Shown here: positions 3,653 to 38,573 of the stretch, piece by piece
Layout of the letters: each line of letters starts with the position of its first letter
Position numbering within the stretch: the first letter of the stretch is position 1
Virus record (IMG/VR): IMGVR_UViG_2706794695_000013
Source: a virus
Taxonomy: Duplodnaviria; Heunggongvirae; Uroviricota; Caudoviricetes
DNA length: 38,573 bases
Direction: 5' to 3' (one strand)
Translations under genes and position numbers: made by a program
The notes under the pieces: model-generated
Database searches by the model: none
Told to the model about the DNA's origin: nothing
Seen by the model: only the letters and a program-made list of their open reading frames with translations

Positions 3653-6600
3653 TCAACGAATACTGATGCCGGAAGCGGCTTTTTTGGTCACAATCACCGT
3701 ACAGTCGGTGATATTGCCTGCCCCCTGATTGCCTTTCTGGAAAATCTTAAACTCCAGAGTGACGCTTCCCCTGCCACTCGGCATATCAATAACTGCACTG
3801 TAACTACCGGGAATGGCCCCTTTAGTTTCTCTGGATGCGATTAATACGCCGTTTTTGCGAACTTCAAAACCATAACCCGTGTATCGCGTGCCTCCTGGGT
3901 TATTTCCGCTCCCCGGATCGTCATACGCTATACCGTTAAAAATAATGGGCGGAATAATAATCTGGCGGTCAAAGTTATGATCATCGCTGATGGTGACTGT
4001 AACCGTACCGTTTGGTGTTTCCGTGTTACCCCACGTACCGACTTTTTTCGGGAAGGCTTTTGATACAGCTTTAACGAAATCCCCTCTGACCTGGGTCGCC
4101 TCCAGCATGCCCTTAATCGTACAGTTCTGGTTAATCGTGACATTGTTGAGCGTCCCTGAATTTGCATTCACATTACCGCTGATATCCGCATTTTTAGCGG
4201 TCAGCTTTCCGTCTGGTGTCAGGGAAAATGCCGGCGGATTTCCACCGCTGGTAATGGTGGGAGCCGTCAGGCGTTTCAGGAACACGTCATTCATGAATAT
4301 CTGGTTGCCCTGCGCCACAAACATCGGCGTTTCATTCCCGTTTGCCGGGTCAATAAACGCGATACGGTTAGCGGCAACCAGAAACTGGCTCAGTTTGCCT
4401 TCCTCCGTGTCCTCCATGCTGAGGCCAATACCCGCGACATAATGTTTGCCGTCTTTGGTCTGCTCAATTTTGACGCCCCACATGGCATTCCACTTATCGT
4501 TGGCGTCCTTCCACTCTTTCGAAAACTCCTCCAGTCTGCTGGCGTTATCCTCCGTCAGGTCGACTTTTTCCAGCAGCTCCTGGCCGAGATGGGATTCGGT
4601 TATCTGGCCTTTGAAAAAATCCAGGTAACCTTCCGCATCATCGCTCGCCCGACCGACAGCCTCCACGAATGCTGATTTGCCGACGGTGTTCACACTGCGG
4701 ATATAAAAGTAATAATCATGGCCCGGCTTAATATTGATACTGGCGGCTATCCAGTACAGCCCCGTGCCAAGGTAGCGGGCTGTGGTTTCAACCTGCCTGA
4801 TATCCGCAATCCGTTTTTCCGAGAACCAGAACTCAAACTGTACCGTCGGGTCATAAACCGCAAGATGCGGCGTGGCGGTTATCTGAAAATAGCCCGGCGT
4901 CAGCTCAATCCGCGACGGCGCTGCCGGTGCGGCAATCCGGAACGATACCGACGCCGGATCGCCCTGCTGCCCCCACGCATTTACTGCCCGGACTGTCAGC
5001 CTGTAGTTCCCCAGAGCCAGTTGTGTGAAGCGGTAAGTGGTTTCCGTCGTCCGGGCCGTGCTGACCAGCCGCTCACGGCCGTCATCCGCTGCCACGGTCA
5101 GGCGAAGCAGGAAGCTCACGCCCTTCACCACCTTCGGCGTGTCCCAGCGGGCCAGCACCTGGTATTCCCCGCTGTCTGCGGTGACTTCTGCGGTCAGGTG
5201 CTGCACCGCTGGCGGCGTGACACCATTTACCGTGCCGCTCTGGTCGCCGTCAAAGTGCGCCCCGTTATCCACGATGGCCTCTTTTTCCGGTACATGCTGC
5301 ACGGCAGTGATGGCATACGTGCCGTCGTCGTTCTCACGGATACTCACGCAGCGGAACAGGCGCTGGCGCAGCGTCGGCAGCTTCAGCCCCCATACGCTGT
5401 ATTCAGCAACGCCGTCAGGAACACGGCTCACTTTCACCTTCACGCCGTCGGTGACGGACTGAACCTCCACGCTGACCGGACTCCCCTGCCCGTCAACCAG
5501 GCTTATCAGCGTGGTGCCGGAAGATGGCAGCGTGATTTCACGGTCGAGCGTCAGCGTCCGGGTCTGGCTGTTTACCGCCAGCACGCGCCCGCCGGTGCGG
5601 ATACCGGCATAGTCATCATCGCAGATTTCAATGACATCGCCCGGTACATGGCGAAGCCCTTCGGCACCCACGCTGAAGTCCACGGTCTGCGTTTCCAGCA
5701 GTTCTGTTTTAATCAGCCACAGCCCGGCGCGGTGTGCCTGCCCCCGGCTGGTACAGCCAAAAGCATCCATCTTCGTGACGTTACGACCGTAACGGGCAAT
5801 GGCCTGCGTGTCCTCCACAAGCTCTGTCGCCGTCTCCCAGCCGTTATTCGGGTCAATCCAGTTCACCTCAACGGCATTATGGCGGTCTTTCAGGGCGCTG
5901 AAGCTGTAGCGGAACGGCGCACCATCATCCGGCATCACCACATTACTGCGGTTATAGGTCCACACCTTATCCGACGGTCGGTCCTGCACGAACGTCAGCG
6001 TCTGCCCGTTCCATACCGGCATACAGCGCATCGCCGAGCAGAAATCACTGAGCACATCCCACGCCTTGCGCTGTGTGGTCAGGTACGCATTACAGGTGAT
6101 GCGCGGCTCCGTGCCGCCAAAACCGTCCGGCACCGACTGATCGCAATGCTGGCCGATGACATACAGCGCCCATTTGTCCACATCCGCCGCACCAAGACGT
6201 TTCCCCATGCCGTAGCGCGGATGGGTCAGCATATCCCACAGACACCAGGCCATGTTGTTGCTGTATGCTGGCTTAAACGTTCCGTCCCAGATACCGCTGT
6301 ATTGCCGCGTCTGCGGGTTATAGCTCGACGGCACCTGCAGAATGCGCCCGCGCAGATGATAATTACGGCTCACCTGCTGGCTGCCGAACTGCTCCGAATC
6401 CACCTGCACGCCGACCAGTGCCGTGTTCGGGTAGCACTGTTTCACATCGATGATTTCGGTGTATGACGACCAGAGCGTTTTGTTCTGCAGCTGGTCTGTG
6501 GTGCTGTCCGGCGTCATCCTGCGCATCCGTATATTGAACGGGCGCGGCGGCAGGTTACCCACCACCACCGAGGCCAGATACTGCGAGGTGGTTTTGCCCT

Positions 6601-31710: not shown

Positions 31711-32539
31711 GACGATGCCCTCCGCTGATATTCAGGAGACGGTGAATATGAAAATTAGCCTTATCCGCCAGACGAATACGTTCAGCTTGCAAGTTAAGAA
31801 GGGTTTCTACCAGAACCTGATGTGCCTGCGGATCCGAAAGAGTTACCTTGCGCAGAGCACGTAGTGCAGTTGTTACATAACTGAGTTTATGTAAGTCTTC
31901 ATCATTCAGACGAGTGAGGGCTGGGACAGTAGCCATGATGGCAGCCTCCTTGATCGGTGAAATACTTCCACCACCGGAAACGCCAATTTCGCTGGTGGTG
32001 AACTGAACGGGGTTGGCGTAACCGGTGATCAAGGAAACCGGCGCATCTTTCGATGCCCCCGCCCAGCCCACCATAACTTTGATGTGAGCAAATGCGGACG
32101 ATAAAAAAGACGCTGGCGCGTCATATATCGCCTTGATCAATTCCAGGACGCCAATCCCGGCACCCGCTTTATAAGGTGCCTGAACAGTGTAACGTCCCGG
32201 AATGGCAGAATCAATGTGCTGGTGGTCCTTCACACTCAACAAAATCACGCCTGAATTTCCACAAAGGACTAAAGCACTCATGCGGGTAGTCTTTGCGAAG
32301 ATAGATAACGCGCTGTGTTTCTGGCTCCCAACGAATAACATGAACATAAAGTCCTCTTCCGTCACGAAACCAGCGGTTAAGTTCCTGCACAACTCGCCCC
32401 CCACAGTCAGGTAAAGTTCTCTGTGGTTACTTACAGCCAGGTGATTTGGTAATCTGCATTCATGCCGTAACAACAGGTGTTCAGCGACGCTGACCACCAG
32501 CTGTTGCGACAAACGGTTATTTGCCGTTAAACTGTTCAT
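31703..32539 (-). CDS. Hypothetical protein, 278 aa
   Basis: GGAG SD upstream of the ATG; ATGA-type overlap with the upstream gene; no Walker motif or recognisable family. Confidence 0.5.
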   Translation of the reverse strand: MNSLTANNRLSQQLVVSVAEHLLLRHECRLPNHLAVSNHRELYLTVGGELCRNLTAGFVTEEDFMFMLFVGSQKHSALSIFAKTTRMSALVLCGNSGVILLSVKDHQHIDSAIPGRYTVQAPYKAGAGIGVLELIKAIYDAPASFLSSAFAHIKVMVGWAGASKDAPVSLITGYANPVQFTTSEIGVSGGGSISPIKEAAIMATVPALTRLNDEDLHKLSYVTTALRALRKVTLSDPQAHQVLVETLLNLQAERIRLADKANFHIHRLLNISGGHRHA

Positions 32540-33099
32540 GCGTTAGTTTCTCCACAGACACAAAACGCCACGACGCCCGGAGCTGCACACTCGCGGGCGT
32601 CACTCTTTTCTGGAGCGCAAAAGATTTTGTAGACCAGTGCTGCATGCTCCTGGAGCTTCGAAATTGACAGATACAACTCATCATTAATTGCTGTCTGCTC
32701 GTGTGGCTCCACTACCCCATCTTCGATTGCCGAACGAATCTGCTTTGAGTAACTCCCGATCTGTTCGATGACTTCCAGCAGGCGCTGGTTTATATCGGCG
32801 TTCTCTACTTCCTCAATTTCAGGAAGCGATACAAACACCCCACCAGCAGACTGTGCGACAGCATCCGCAATGTAGTGAGTGCCAGCCGCGCGCTGTAAAA
32901 TCATTGCCCATCCCAGCGGGAAAATCTGATCGCCATCTGCACGAAGGCGGTTGAATAAAGCGTTCTCTGTTACATCCAGCCACTCAGCAGCTTCAGCGTA
33001 ACCCCCCGGCAACGCCGCGATAGTTTTTCTGACAGCTTTCACGTACCACTCAGGCTGTTTTTCTACTTTCCAGTGATGCTTACCCACGGTTAGCCTCAT
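32536..33099 (-). CDS. Hypothetical early protein, 187 aa (possibly a CII/CP76-like regulator)
   Basis: First gene after cro in the early-right operon; acidic C-terminal half; family assignment is from memory only. Confidence 0.45.
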   Translation of the reverse strand: MRLTVGKHHWKVEKQPEWYVKAVRKTIAALPGGYAEAAEWLDVTENALFNRLRADGDQIFPLGWAMILQRAAGTHYIADAVAQSAGGVFVSLPEIEEVENADINQRLLEVIEQIGSYSKQIRSAIEDGVVEPHEQTAINDELYLSISKLQEHAALVYKIFCAPEKSDARECAAPGVVAFCVCGETNA

Positions 33100-33130
33100 C
33101 GTTCTGTGGTTAAAAATTGAAGGTGTTCTG

Positions 33131-33331
33131 TTAATCTTTCGGATAGATATCCGGTCTTAAGTCAGATTTCGTAATTGCACCTGACGTGCATTGCTCAAGT
33201 TTTTTAGCCAGCACAAAACTGGCTTTTTTATAACCATTGAAAACCAGCCGTAAGTAGCCTGGTGTTGAGCCAACTTTTCCGGCCAACTCACCCTGCTGTT
33301 CTTTGGTTAAAGAGTCCCAATACGCTTTCAT
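33131..33331 (-). CDS. Cro-like HTH repressor (66 aa)
   Basis: Internal ATG at 33331 with GGAGG upstream; HTH-like segment GELAGKVGSTPGYLRLVFNGYKK; divergent from the repressor gene. Confidence 0.7.
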   Translation of the reverse strand: MKAYWDSLTKEQQGELAGKVGSTPGYLRLVFNGYKKASFVLAKKLEQCTSGAITKSDLRPDIYPKD

Positions 33332-33334
33332 ACA

Positions 33335-33407
33335 ATATGTACCTCCGGTATACATATTACATGATTGAGATGAACCTTCAAGATACTTGTACCTTATCGG
33401 TACAAAG
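33335..33407. promoter_or_regulatory. OR-like operator region between cro and cI
   Basis: Two near-palindromes sharing the core TGTACC-N(3-5)-GGTACA: atatgtacctccggtatacatat and acttgtaccttatcggtacaaag. Confidence 0.5.
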
Positions 33408-33421
33408 GTTTTAATTTCTTT

Positions 33422-34096
33422 ATGAAAACAGTCCATGACATCCGGCGGTCTAACGCCAGAAAACTGAGAGATGGTGTTGGCGGGAATTCTTCCTTTGCCA
33501 CCATGATTGATCGCGAGCCAACCCAGACCAGCAGGTTTATGGGAGATGGTGCAACTAAAAATATCGGTGACAGCATGGCACGGCACATCGAAAAATGTTT
33601 CGACCTGCCTGTCGGATGGCTTGATCAAGAACACCAGACAACGAACATCACAAAAAAACCTGACGTTTCAATCACTAACAAACAAATAACGTTAGTCCCT
33701 GTCATATCATGGGTACAGGCCGGAGCATGGAAAGAAGTTGGCTATTCTGAGGTTGATTTGAGCACAGCAGAAACTTATCCCTGCCCTGTACCCTGTGGCG
33801 AAATGACTTATATCTTGCGGGTGATTGGTGATTCAATGATTGATGAGTACCGCCCGGGAGACATGATTTTTGTTGATCCTGAAGTCCCTGCCTGCCACGG
33901 TGACGACGTTATTGCATTGATGCACGATACAGGCGAAACCACCTTCAAGCGGTTGATAGAAGATGGAACACAGCGTTATCTCAAAGCATTAAACCCAAAC
34001 TGGCCTGAGCCTTACATTAAGATTAACGGTAATTGCTCTATAATTGGTACAGTGATTTTCTCAGGAAAACCAAGAAGATACATAATAAAGGCCTAA
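33422..34096 (+). CDS. CI-type repressor with C-terminal S24 (LexA-like) autopeptidase domain
   Basis: 224 aa; catalytic Ser in VIGDSM and Lys in TFKRL; N-terminal DNA-binding region; divergent from cro. Confidence 0.85.
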   Translation: MKTVHDIRRSNARKLRDGVGGNSSFATMIDREPTQTSRFMGDGATKNIGDSMARHIEKCFDLPVGWLDQEHQTTNITKKPDVSITNKQITLVPVISWVQAGAWKEVGYSEVDLSTAETYPCPVPCGEMTYILRVIGDSMIDEYRPGDMIFVDPEVPACHGDDVIALMHDTGETTFKRLIEDGTQRYLKALNPNWPEPYIKINGNCSIIGTVIFSGKPRRYIIKA

Positions 34097-34107
34097 TCAA
34101 TATTTAT

Positions 34108-34131
34108 AACCTGCTTCGGCAGGTTTTTTTA
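34108..34131 (+). terminator. Rho-independent terminator after the repressor gene
   Basis: acctgc ttcg gcaggt followed by TTTTTTT. Confidence 0.7.
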
Positions 34132-34134
34132 TAC

Positions 34135-34163
34135 TTGACAATGTACCTTTGGGATACATAATG
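34135..34163 (+). promoter_or_regulatory. PL-like promoter with overlapping OL-like operator
   Basis: TTGACA, 16-nt spacer, CATAAT; the spacer carries atgtacctttgggatacat, the same motif as the OR sites. Confidence 0.5.
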
Positions 34164-34782
34164 TATCTAAAAGAAACACAGCACAGGCAAGATTAAACAA
34201 AATTTGGTTGTAACACGGCGTATGGCACATGCGTCGTTAGCGGTCTGGGGACGTTAAAGGGGACAATCCACTCCTTGCTCGGGCAAACAAACCAGGTAGC
34301 CGGAATGTGCAAGTCAATGATGATGCTGATAAGACGCCTAACCAGCGTGGCGATTCGGTTTGACGCCTGGGAAGAGACCAGGGTGCAACGATGAGGACAT
34401 TTATGGAACCGCGACAAAGTGTGGTGCCGTAACTGGCTAAGTGCTCTCAGCGTTGTGGTGAATGCGCAGGCTGATGCGCGAAAGACATTGCAGCTAATGC
34501 GGAAAAGAGCTGTTCGGCGGGGCAATTAAACGCCCGTGAGAGTCTGAAATAACCGCAAGCCGGAGATCAGCACCGGTCACCACAACAGCCACTGCTTTGG
34601 CGGTACCAGTTTGTACACTTGCTTCCGGCTGGTACCGCTCTTTTTACAAAACAGAGAAGAGCATCACCGGACGACGGGCTCATAACCAAATCCATCCGGG
34701 CGGCTGCCACCGCAGGTGTTCTTCTCTGTTTTGTGGAGAAACCAACCGACCTTGCAGGGTCGATATGATTAGGAGCAGCAAA

Positions 34783-35145
34783 ATGGCTAGCGAACGCAGT
34801 ACTGATGTGCAGGCATTTATTGGGGAGCTGGACGGCGGCGTATTTGAAACCAAAATCGGCGCAGTTCTCAGTGAAGTCGCTTCCGGTGTGATGAACACGA
34901 AAACCAAAGGTAAGGTCTCACTCAACCTGGAAATCGAACCATTTGATGAGAACCGTGTGAAAATCAAACACAAACTCTCATATGTTCGCCCGACTAACCG
35001 CGGGAAAATTTCCGAAGAAGACACCACCGAAACGCCGATGTATGTCAATCGCGGTGGTCGCCTGACTATTCTGCAGGAAGACCAGGGACAATTACTGACT
35101 CTTGCCGGTGAACCTGACGGAAAACTCCGCGCAGCAGGTCATTAA
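34783..35145 (+). CDS. Hypothetical protein, 120 aa (YfdP-like by recollection)
   Basis: ATG at 34783 with AGGAG 7 nt upstream (MASERSTDVQAFIGELDGG...); track ORF starts at an upstream TTG. Confidence 0.55.
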   Translation: MASERSTDVQAFIGELDGGVFETKIGAVLSEVASGVMNTKTKGKVSLNLEIEPFDENRVKIKHKLSYVRPTNRGKISEEDTTETPMYVNRGGRLTILQEDQGQLLTLAGEPDGKLRAAGH

Positions 35146-35210
35146 TATCGTTCTTAATTAACCGATTATTTATCTCATCACTGAATATCTTTATATAGTG
35201 AGGACTTATT

Positions 35211-36035
35211 ATGTCTCAGAACTTAGACGCAACCGCAATTAATCAAATCCATGCCCTTATTTCTGCTCAGGGTGTTAATGAAATTATCAGTAAGATTGGT
35301 GCCGATGCTGTGGCATTGCCTGAGAATTTCCGCATTCATGATCTGGAAAAATTAAATTTAAATCGTTTCCGTTTCCGTGGTGCGCTTTCCACTGCCAGCA
35401 TCGATGACTTTACTCGTTATTCTAAAGATCTTGCAGATGAAGGCACCCGCTGCTTTATCGATGCTGATAATATGCGTGCCGTCAGTGTTCTTAACCTGGG
35501 TACTATTGATGAACCAGGTCACGCAGATAACACCGCCACTCTCAAACTGAAAAAGACAGCTCCGTTCTCTGCTCTGTTGTCTGTTAATGGCGAGCGTAAC
35601 TCCCAGAAGTCACTGGCAGAATGGATTGAAGACTGGGCCGACTACCTTGTGGGCTTTGATGCTAATGGTGACGCCATTCAGGCAACCAAAGCGGCTGCGG
35701 CGATCCGTAAAATCACAATTGAAGCGAACCAGACCGCTGATTTTGAAGATAATGACTTCAGCGGCAAACGCTCCCTGATGGAGTCTGTCGAAGCGAAGAC
35801 CAAAGACATTATGCCAGTGGCATTTGAATTTAAATGCGTTCCGTTTGAAGGTCTGAAAGAACGTCCGTTTAAATTACGCCTCAGCATTATCACTGGCGAT
35901 CGTCCTGTACTGGTTCTGCGCATTATTCAGCTGGAAGCGGTACAGGAAGAAATGGCTAACGAATTTCGTGATCTGCTTGTTGAGAAATTCAAAGACAGCA
36001 AAGTAGAAACCTTTATTGGTACTTTCACCGCCTGA
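35211..36035 (+). CDS. Hypothetical protein, 274 aa (YfdQ-like / DUF2303 by recollection)
   Basis: Complete [24 protein letters not shown]...; co-oriented and adjacent to the 120-aa gene. Confidence 0.55.
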
Positions 36036-36069: not shown

Positions 36070-36223
36070 ACGGAAGCGATAATTTTAACTATTGCCGCCC
36101 CTATAAAGAACCATTAAACAATAACGTGACGTAGCTATTGATAGTAAATGAAGCACTTGCAAAATAATTGCATTGCGTATATATACACACATGTGTTGTA
36201 TTACAGCGATAATGGTAAAGCAA

Positions 36224-37006
36224 ATGATTAACTCTGAAGCAATTGAGCAACTAATGTGGCTATGGTCCTTATTTGACATTAAATTCTTATCTATTCTTGC
36301 CGCTGCCTTCACTATATATTTTGGCGTGCAAAAAATATCAAAAAAGGTGACAGTGTCGTATTCAGCAAATGCAAGTAGAATATATGACATGCATATATCA
36401 ACCATAATCCTGAATAATAAAAGAGATAATGCAATTGCTATATCTTCAATCAATATGGAGGTTGAAGGTAAAGGGATACTACAAGTTATTAAATTTGACT
36501 CCCCTCTTCTTTTAAAGAACTATGATTCTTTAAAAGTTGAACCACCAAAATTTAGCAGCCTTTACAATAATGATGGCGTAGTTAAGTTAGATATTTCTGA
36601 TAAGTTTCATTTTTATATAATCACGACATCTGGAGATGAAATTAAATGTATTTCTGAAAATAAATATGTAGCACCAAACATGGAAAACAAAATAGCTACA
36701 GACATAAGAAAATTTAATGGCATTGTCTTAACAAACAGAATGTCTTATATTTTTTTCTATGCAAATGACAACGGAGAGAAATACTGCATAATAGATGTTT
36801 CATTGTTCATAAATGGTGACAACCCATTTCATTTTAATTTTTTAAAAGAAGATGAATTAAGAGATTTTTCTAGCATCCTTATTAGTTACGGATATCACCA
36901 ACAGTTTAAAAGTTATGCATTGTTTAAAATAGACAACCATCTTGCTCCTTCTTTGGTTTTAAATAAATCAATGATAGAAAATAATATTATTGAAATGAAT
37001 AAGTAA
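36224..37006 (+). CDS. Membrane-anchored protein of unknown function, AT-rich cassette (start uncertain, 36173-36224)
   Basis: N-terminal hydrophobic helix LMWLWSLFDIKFLSILAAAFTIYFGV then a soluble domain rich in N/K/I/F; GC far below the neighbours; possible own promoter TTGCAA-17-TATACA near 36157-36185. Confidence 0.6.
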   Translation: MINSEAIEQLMWLWSLFDIKFLSILAAAFTIYFGVQKISKKVTVSYSANASRIYDMHISTIILNNKRDNAIAISSINMEVEGKGILQVIKFDSPLLLKNYDSLKVEPPKFSSLYNNDGVVKLDISDKFHFYIITTSGDEIKCISENKYVAPNMENKIATDIRKFNGIVLTNRMSYIFFYANDNGEKYCIIDVSLFINGDNPFHFNFLKEDELRDFSSILISYGYHQQFKSYALFKIDNHLAPSLVLNKSMIENNIIEMNK

Positions 37007-37042: not shown

Positions 37043-37324
37043 ATGAATACCTTGTTTTTACTGATGGCTGAATTCAATACCCCAAACATTGAACTCTCAG
37101 CAGTTAGTCAAAAATACTTTGGTATGAGTCCAGCCACAGCAGAAGCAAAAGCAAACGCTTGTAAGTTGCCTGTACCTACATATCGCATCGGTACATCACA
37201 AAAAGCAAAACGTTGCATCAATATTCAGGATCTTGCGGAATACATAGACAAAAGACGAGAAGAAGGACGTATCGAGTGGGAACAGGTCAGAACAGGCAAA
37301 CAGAAGGGCAAAGAACATCACTAA
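37043..37324 (+). CDS. PrtN-like small DNA-binding protein (regulator or excisionase-like)
   Basis: 93 aa; MNTLFLLMAEFNTPNIELSAVSQKYFGMSPATAEAKANACKLPVPTYRIG... resembles the PrtN / phage regulatory family. Confidence 0.55.
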   Translation: MNTLFLLMAEFNTPNIELSAVSQKYFGMSPATAEAKANACKLPVPTYRIGTSQKAKRCINIQDLAEYIDKRREEGRIEWEQVRTGKQKGKEHH

Positions 37325-37584: not shown

Positions 37585-38004
37585 TTACTCATCATCAATA
37601 GATGATACGCAATATTTATTTTTAAATTTAAGGTTCTTTGGCGTAACTTCATCAGATATATCAAAACCGTCCAGAATTCTATTGAATGTAGCTTCTGGCA
37701 TATCATCATGAACGGAAATCTCACCCGATCGCTGCTTTCTAACCATGTTATCCACTCGCCAAATTATAGCTTCAGCGTAAACAACATAACTTGGATGCTT
37801 GATAAAGCGATGATCACCAGAATTCAAGACGCAAGACGGATCGTGGGGGACACCATCCTTGATACTAGAAATATTAACAACTAAAACACAATAACAATCG
37901 TTAACGGGGTAATAAACAGGATCATTACAAATCACATGAAGATGATTGCATGGCCCAGTTGGGGCAAGCACAGTTCCTTTCCTGTATGGCTGATAATCCG
38001 TCAT
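37585..38004 (-). CDS. Hypothetical protein, 139 aa, translationally coupled to the Panacea-like gene (candidate toxin)
   Basis: ATGA overlap with the upstream stop at 38001-38004; Cys/His-containing MTDYQPYRKGTVLAPTGPCNHLHVICNDP...; no recognisable family. Confidence 0.55.
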   Translation of the reverse strand: MTDYQPYRKGTVLAPTGPCNHLHVICNDPVYYPVNDCYCVLVVNISSIKDGVPHDPSCVLNSGDHRFIKHPSYVVYAEAIIWRVDNMVRKQRSGEISVHDDMPEATFNRILDGFDISDEVTPKNLKFKNKYCVSSIDDE

Positions 38005-38573
38005 GATAATTGCAAAGAAAATTCCTTAAGTTTCTGAGATTCTTCCATTTTGCCAATTATACGATTAGCCTCATCCTCGCTTTTACCCTCACTGATCAGC
38101 ATTTCTTTCAGGTCTATAGGCTTACGAGAATTGCCAGGATTGTGCCACTCTGGACAAACGCTTTCTAAATGCGTCATGTTTGCGAGATCAAATCGGTTCA
38201 TATGCCCATACAGAGAATAGATTTCATCTAAAATCCGGATATCTGCACGGCTCAACTCATCAAAGACCTCGTCTGCATCCATTTCCCTCGGATCTGAACG
38301 CAACAACACATCATGCCCGTTCGTCTCTATCAGGTTGTACCAGTAGTCACCAATACCTTCAGCCTTACCACGAATCAAGTTCAGCGTATTCGACATGACT
38401 GGACCAAATTTCATAGAGTAAAGGCTATCTTCGCCGATCATCCTGCCATGCTTCAAAATCGACTTGCGGTTAGACAGATAGAGCAGCTTCATCAATTTCA
38501 GATATGCCATGCGCCCACCTCGCTTAAGAAGTAGGTATGCAGCCATTTGAGCTACTTTTTCTTCGCAAAACAT
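38001..38573 (-). CDS. Panacea-domain (DUF4065, SocA/GepA-like) protein, candidate antitoxin; N-terminus may extend beyond the window
   Basis: VAQMAAYLLLKRGGRMAYLKLMKLLYLSNRK...SMKFGPVMSNTLNLI fits the Panacea pattern (T-x-LKL-x-KLLY ... F-x-A-x2-GPV); ORF begins at the last base of the window. Confidence 0.6.
   Translation of the reverse strand: MFCEEKVAQMAAYLLLKRGGRMAYLKLMKLLYLSNRKSILKHGRMIGEDSLYSMKFGPVMSNTLNLIRGKAEGIGDYWYNLIETNGHDVLLRSDPREMDADEVFDELSRADIRILDEIYSLYGHMNRFDLANMTHLESVCPEWHNPGNSRKPIDLKEMLISEGKSEDEANRIIGKMEESQKLKEFSLQLS

Follow-up and report, generated by a model that had tools for sequence, protein, structure and literature searches.

The stretch of DNA analysed here (the window) comprises 38 573 nt of a prophage of the class Caudoviricetes, IMG/VR record IMGVR_UViG_2706794695_000013, and contains two divergent regulatory genes with a 90-bp spacer between them. 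On the minus strand the open reading frame list gives a cro-like gene (33131–33331, 66 aa) whose product is identical to Cro of phage SfV, belongs to the YmfT/CroE type of the e14 prophage and shows weak Pfam matches to YdaS and HTH_3; leftward of it lie a CII (CP76) homologue and an Ash-family protein. A cro homologue occupies the same place in all relatives; RefSeq names the E. coli gene ymfT. On the plus strand a cI-type repressor gene (33422–34096) encodes 224 aa, 222 of which are identical to YmfK/CohE of the e14 prophage of Escherichia coli K-12. The protein is made up of a helix-turn-helix part (residues 1 to about 72), for which a Pfam search with the N-terminal 75 residues matched no family, and an S24 domain (residues 93–212) that matches Pfam Peptidase_S24 over its full length (E 1.5e-26) and resembles the C-terminal domain of lambda CI in the PDB (E about 2e-9). 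Self-cleavage of lambda CI occurs at Ala111-Gly112 and uses Ser149 and Lys192. Reading the repressor sequence at the places of the lambda cleavage site, serine and lysine we find the motifs QAG, GDSM and FKRL, which are predicted to serve as the cleavage motif and to supply the serine and the lysine of S24 self-cleavage, respectively.

Both genes are preceded by promoter-like sequences. For the cro side we infer that PR is formed on the minus strand (33354–33381) by TTGAAG (33381–33376) and TAATAT (33359–33354) with a spacer of 16 bp and a start point predicted near 33346–33349; its score is below the 9/12 threshold of the promoter tool, and an ungapped alignment with relatives shows conservation of its two hexamers. 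PRM on the plus strand (33387–33415) consists of a −35 element TTGTAC (33387–33392), a 17-bp spacer and a −10 element TTTAAT (33410–33415). Its start coincides with the A of the cI ATG (33422), which predicts a leaderless mRNA. In K-12 the e14 ymfK mRNA was found to be leaderless by differential RNA-seq, as one of only five such mRNAs in this strain (PMC4681348), and this fixes the position of PRM. Among relatives, the PRM hexamers are conserved both in sequence and in how far they lie from the ATG; the intervening 6 nt are variable and contain no Shine-Dalgarno sequence. Downstream of cI we find an intrinsic terminator on the plus strand (34108–34132, stem AACCTGC/GCAGGTT followed by a T run), which is conserved in relatives and annotated in SfV and Ayreon, and then a PL-like promoter on the same strand (34135–34162, TTGACA-16-CATAAT) that agrees with the consensus at 11 of 12 positions, carries a promoter annotation in Ayreon and is nearly invariant among the relatives aligned at OL. 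Nothing above threshold came out of Rfam and tRNA scans covering 33000–35300 and the window.

The original prediction placed three related operator sites at this locus, two between cro and cI and one in the spacer of the PL-like promoter. All three exist: an OR1-like site at 33338–33354 (TGTACCTCCGGTATACA) and an OR3-like site at 33388–33404 (TGTACCTTATCGGTACA), both inside the 90-bp spacer, and OL1 at 34142–34158 (TGTACCTTTGGGATACA), which fills the spacer of TTGACA-16-CATAAT right after the cI terminator. All of them fit the 17-bp frame TGTACC-N5-GGTACA, with 2, 0 and 1 mismatches, respectively, the OR3-like site being a perfect palindrome. The proposed core, TGTACC-N(3-5)-GG(T)ACA, is thus shared by the sites, but its variable spacing does not hold up, as relatives have a fixed N5. 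A reading of the first site with three intervening bases (TGTACC-TCC-GGTA) was dropped because it is not conserved and the relatives hold the fixed 17-bp frame. Two weaker sites, each with three mismatches, fit the same frame: an OR2-like site at 33371–33387 (TGAACCTTCAAGATACT) and an OL2-like site at 34162–34178 (TGTATCTAAAAGAAACA).

Searching the whole 38.5-kb window for 17-mers with no more than two mismatches yields 4 matches (0.98 expected), and at least 4 matches occurred in none of 100 shuffled sequences; the fourth match, at 5739, has two mismatches and is of chance quality. The hexamer TGTACC alone is present in 23 copies in the window, so the significance rests in the paired and spaced arrangement. 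To score the sites we used a position weight matrix trained on 41 sites from relatives, with the window and near-identical copies excluded. Its top five positions in the window all lie beside cI: 33388 (score 23.4), 34142 (21.7), 33338 (16.2), 34162 (14.9) and 33371 (9.2). The maxima obtained from 200 shuffles have a mean of 9.9 and reach 19.7 at the highest; the top three scores (16–23) exceed this mean, and only the third of them (16.2) falls below the highest shuffled maximum. The next score in the whole-window scan is 6.1, i.e. below chance level, and no further operators were found elsewhere in the prophage. With 9.2 the OR2-like site scores no higher than the best chance match in shuffled sequence; it is probably an operator nonetheless, a candidate backed by its position and conservation rather than by its score. 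Taking the weak sites into account, the operators probably number five and not three.

Every one of the five sites overlaps a promoter element. The OR1-like site begins with the final base of the PR −10 element, covers the predicted start point and reaches into the cro leader; the cro Shine-Dalgarno sequence (GGAGG, minus strand) falls within the spacer of this site. PR −35 is spanned by the OR2-like site, and PRM −35 together with part of the PRM spacer is overlapped by the OR3-like site. Counted from the PRM start, the perfect site occupies positions −34 to −18, on top of the −35 hexamer, and the centres of the weak OR2-like site and of the first site are at −43 and −76, respectively. At the other end of cI, OL1 fills the PL spacer and the first −10 bases, and the OL2-like site covers the end of the PL −10 element and the start point. 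The centre-to-centre distances are 33 and 17 bp at OR and 20 bp between OL1 and OL2. The OR2-like and OR3-like sites abut with zero bp between them, and at 17 bp apart their centres lie on roughly opposite faces of the helix.

The window DNA is 92.8% identical to e14 over 32503–34192, and the locus is 95–98% identical to the immunity regions of cdtI, Ayreon, 2H10, SfV, SfIV and Stx2c-converting phages. The same region, annotated ymfK and ymfT, is present in 1324 of 5426 complete E. coli genomes. The locus is an e14/SfV-type immunity region with near-identical repressor, Cro and operators. In e14, SfV, SfIV, cdtI, Ayreon and the Stx2c phages five sites are found at positions matching those of the window, and among copies with a CI at least 99% identical (K-12 e14, SfV, cdtI, Ayreon, Stx2c phage) the differences fall mainly in the N5 spacers. 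Two half-sites of the window differ from K-12 e14, namely the right half of OR1 (TATACA vs TGTACA) and the left half of OL2 (TGTATC vs TGTACC). Downstream of 34192 the window no longer matches e14 and SfV; its sequence there resembles that of cdtI and Ayreon. Ayreon (L002), for which E. coli K12 is the listed host, has a CI about 99% identical to that of e14 and the same operators. From this likeness, a K-12 strain carrying e14 would be expected to be immune to Ayreon, and the phage was presumably propagated on an e14-free K-12 derivative.

An immunity region of this kind is already known: it is a textbook lambdoid arrangement, and its operator region had been flagged beforehand in the GenBank record of SfV, where the 'putative operator region' (1738–1806 of L001) runs from the start of the first site to the end of the second. 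CohE control of e14 genes was still termed 'likely' in 2020, and in the searchable literature we found no binding, footprint, ChIP or reporter data for YmfK or YmfT. The functions of e14 are SOS-inducible, and its genes are co-regulated as the 'YmfT iModulon'. In their 2004 study of e14, Mehta, Casjens and Krishnaswamy reportedly identified binding sites for repressor and Cro.

A motif search of the window and of related prophages had been suggested as a check of the original prediction; the motif is enriched in the window, as described above, and recurs at the same OR offsets in related loci. When the N-terminal 81 residues of the repressor were used in a translated search, phage relatives with 31–73% identity were retrieved (phages of Hafnia, Vibrio, Pseudomonas and Ralstonia as well as Stx1 phages), and a scan of one genome per species added 20 loci with 58–99% identity. 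In each of the 25 related loci examined, the motif occupies the same pair of OR offsets; these loci have DNA-binding domains that are 51–99% identical, and they include Escherichia, Hafnia, Pantoea, Klebsiella, Proteus, Rosenbergiella, Vibrio and Pseudomonas; at the Vibrio locus the −84/−85 site is degenerate, with no match within two mismatches. Relative to the cI ATG, the offsets in the relatives are −84/−85, −34/−35 and about +720, the last following the cI terminator. This third position, the OL motif, was not found in three Vibrio/Pseudomonas phage loci and is present in all other related loci.

Across the relatives the half-sites are nearly invariant while the N5 spacers vary freely. At the −34 site the half-site columns of the ungapped alignment hold 1.90 bits and the N5 columns 0.59, compared with a mean of 1.06 for the other intergenic columns. 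Part of the conservation has other sources, i.e. the cro Shine-Dalgarno sequence in the OR1 spacer, PR −35 in the OR2 spacer and PRM −35 in the left half of OR3. The weak sites are also conserved: the OR2-like dyad lies at −51/−50 and reads TGAACCTACAAGGTACT in enterobacteria, AGTTCCTTCAAGGAACT (a perfect palindrome) in Rosenbergiella and TGTACCGTCAAGGTTCT in Pseudomonas, and the OL2-like position reads TGTACCnnnAAGAAACA in relatives, its left half being widely conserved and conservation of its right half being confined to loci with homologous sequence downstream.

The predicted recognition helix, IDRE(P/A)TQ(T/V)SR, is invariant in the motif-bearing loci. The CI of BP-4795 (Stx1/H-19B-type) serves as a heteroimmune control: it belongs to the same N-terminal domain family (41% identity) and has the same cI/cro layout, but its recognition helix reads SPSQLTQV (EPTQTSRF here), and its locus has TTTATCA/TGATAAA repeats in place of a TGTACC-N5-GGTACA site. 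The motif is kept together with the helix and is absent from BP-4795, where the helix is another; thus it tracks the CI DNA-binding domain. The relative in Ralstonia phage RSK1 (41% identity) shows a different recognition helix and one site with two mismatches by the repressor start. As an operator consensus for the CI-type repressor the motif is hence supported by comparison, through conserved offsets and recognition helix. The further claim that it defines immunity specificity holds at the level of the repressor family, across genera, but not as a property unique to this prophage.

Some of the related loci deserve separate mention. In three Pseudomonas loci (L005, L006 and L026) an e14-type N-terminal domain and TGTACC operators occur together with a different, longer C-terminal domain, which points to domain shuffling with putative retention of operator specificity. 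Two decaying prophages have an altered cro, fused to a downstream open reading frame (235 aa) in L007 and cut to 24 aa in L018, with cI and every operator intact despite this. In the Hafnia phage yong2 a tRNA-Gly(CCC) gene (L003, 2367–2440) lies in the PL leader, about 130 bp downstream of OL.

Considering the sequence comparisons as a whole, the palindromes are almost certainly sites bound by the CI-like repressor and Cro of the prophage. That three short palindromes merely resemble each other by chance, which the frequency of TGTACC by itself (23 copies) might suggest, has a negligible probability in view of the 100 shuffles that never reached four 17-mers, the top matrix scores and the positions conserved in 25 loci. 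It is somewhat less remote, yet still very improbable, that the palindromes bind no protein and are conserved merely as promoter hexamers, cro ribosome-binding site or RNA hairpins. The sites are indeed overlapped by a Shine-Dalgarno sequence, PR −35 and PRM −35, and a terminator scan flags a terminator-like stem at 33387–33405 (TTGTACCTTATCGGTACAA followed by AGGTTTTAAT). However, the T run behind this stem is not conserved in relatives and OL1 is untranscribed, and the hairpin or terminator reading of 33387–33405 was rejected on these grounds. OL1 moreover lies in a promoter spacer without consensus requirement, where the 12 half-site positions are nearly invariant and N5 varies; the outer bases of OR1 (TGTA/TACA) fall outside the Shine-Dalgarno sequence; and promoter or ribosome-binding elements do not predict one 6-bp half-site that returns three to five times in a single frame.

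More of a contender, and still unlikely, is binding by one regulator only, e.g. Cro, or by another phage or host factor, with CI acting elsewhere. The strongest site is at OR3, where lambda Cro binds first, and a Cro homologue accompanies the CI N-terminal domain in every locus; since both homologues always co-occur, comparison cannot separate CI from Cro or decide the site preference of each protein. On the other hand, neither the 90-bp OR nor OL contains a further repeated motif that is conserved, OL1 is located downstream of cI and distant from cro, and the motif follows the CI recognition helix. As far as is known, all lambdoid switches that have been characterised use common operators for CI and Cro. 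We therefore favour the reading that the sites are operators of an e14/SfV-type lambdoid immunity region to which both the CI-like and the Cro-like protein would bind, and assign it a probability of roughly 85%.

For the operators of such an immunity region we propose the following scheme. CI-like dimers of the YmfK/CohE type would recognise TGTACC-N5-GGTACA by their helix-turn-helix with the recognition helix ...TQTSR..., and during lytic growth the same 17-bp dyad would be recognised by the Cro-like protein of the YmfT/CroE type. Repressor on OR1, at the PR start point, and on the OR2-like site, at PR −35, would switch off cro and the early-right operon. From the OR2-like site, whose centre lies at −43 relative to the start of the cI transcript, CI may activate the weak PRM, and occupation of the OR3-like site on PRM −35 would lead to negative autoregulation by CI or to a shut-off of cI by Cro. 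CI at OL1 and OL2 would block PL and thereby silence the early-left operon towards xis and int. RecA-stimulated S24 self-cleavage would finally part the DNA-binding from the dimerisation domain and lift repression, a proposed SOS relief that agrees with the SOS-inducible functions of e14 and the 'YmfT iModulon'. We infer actual binding, the role of each site, the order of filling and PRM activation from the arrangement of the sites, and as the OR geometry is not lambda-like, cooperative pairing and PRM activation are assumptions.

In outline the locus resembles lambda. It has the features of a lambdoid switch, with divergent cI and cro genes, a helix-turn-helix repressor with an S24 C-terminal domain of the self-cleaving type, repeated operators over PR and PRM, and an operator at PL. 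As in lambda, 17-bp, partly symmetric operators are common to OR and OL, PR and PRM lie back to back, the cI mRNA is leaderless, an operator is located near −42/−43 of a weak PRM, and a terminator and then PL with operators follow downstream of cI. Lambda OR2 is the position from which CI activates PRM, and it is centred as the weak site here (−43). The details differ. The consensus half-site of lambda is TATCAC, and it is unrelated to TGTACC. Lambda has three evenly spaced sites each at OR and OL, about 23–24 bp from centre to centre, a spacing with which adjacent dimers can bind cooperatively in pairs, whereas here the OR distances are uneven and only two OL sites are seen. Unlike in lambda, it is the OR3 position that carries the closest match to the consensus. 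Cro belongs to the YdaS/HTH type and does not have the lambda Cro fold, and the N-terminal domain of the repressor is not detectably similar to that of lambda CI.

The closest solved relative of this DNA-binding domain is the repressor Rep of Salmonella phage SPC32H (PDB 5D50, profile E 1.1e-10). Only the N-terminal domain aligns; the C-terminal domain differs, being a Peptidase_S24 here and not the Rep-type tetramerisation domain. The recognition-helix residues also differ between the two repressors, so a shared operator is not expected. In the work describing the 5D50 structure, Rep is said to be inactivated by an antirepressor rather than by self-cleavage.

The best consensus match at a PRM-repressing position would be unexpected if affinity simply tracked the match to the consensus. 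This site on PRM −35 is the only perfectly symmetric one at OR and the most conserved there. Given the layout of the OR sites, OR2 and OR3 might never be filled at the same time, or low CI concentrations might suffice for negative autoregulation, with repression of PR depending on longer-range pairing between OR1 and OR2 or between OR and OL. We regard as doubtful the joint reading in which the switch logic differs from that of lambda and e14-type elements may in addition confer cross-immunity. The features not shared with lambda are compatible with a switch logic somewhat unlike that of lambda, but do not count as evidence for it. The idea of cross-immunity derives from the half-site and recognition helix being kept from Escherichia to Pseudomonas and from the expression of the e14 repressor in K-12. 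If it is true, resident elements of the e14 type, which about 24% of complete E. coli genomes contain, may immunise their hosts against SfV, cdtI and Stx2c-converting phages.

The practical gain of the analysis is an operator model based on comparison, TGTACC-N5-GGTACA, with five sites and their assigned promoter overlaps. It covers the repressor of K-12 itself and of roughly a quarter of sequenced E. coli, a repressor that also occurs in serotype-converting phages of Shigella and in phages for the Cdt-I and Stx2c toxins. With this model, the YmfK/YmfT regulon, SOS-induced expression of YmfM (the e14 division inhibitor) and possible cross-immunity between e14 and toxin-converting phages become open to direct testing.

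Several observations concern other parts of the window. The PL leader (34165–34790, roughly 600 nt) contains no convincing open reading frame and folds unusually well as RNA (z −3.97). Within it, a GC-rich hairpin followed by CTTTTT (about 34598–34650) resembles an intrinsic terminator, and a long near-perfect hairpin follows at about 34647–34740; the segment 34597–34767 is 83% identical to e14 DNA within the annotated ymfH gene. We saw no gene for an N-like antiterminator. Further downstream, an open reading frame of 277 aa (36173–37006) with a G/C content of 29–36% and no Pfam match has as its neighbours a gene of the DUF2303/YfdQ family and an excisionase-like gene of the PrtN family (37043–37324), and may be an accessory gene (moron). 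At the end of the prophage, on the minus strand, 38001–38573 encodes a protein with a SocA/Panacea antitoxin domain, and the start of a 139-aa protein without family match (37585–38004, minus strand) overlaps the stop of this gene; together (37585–38573) they make a candidate toxin-antitoxin pair of the Panacea type.
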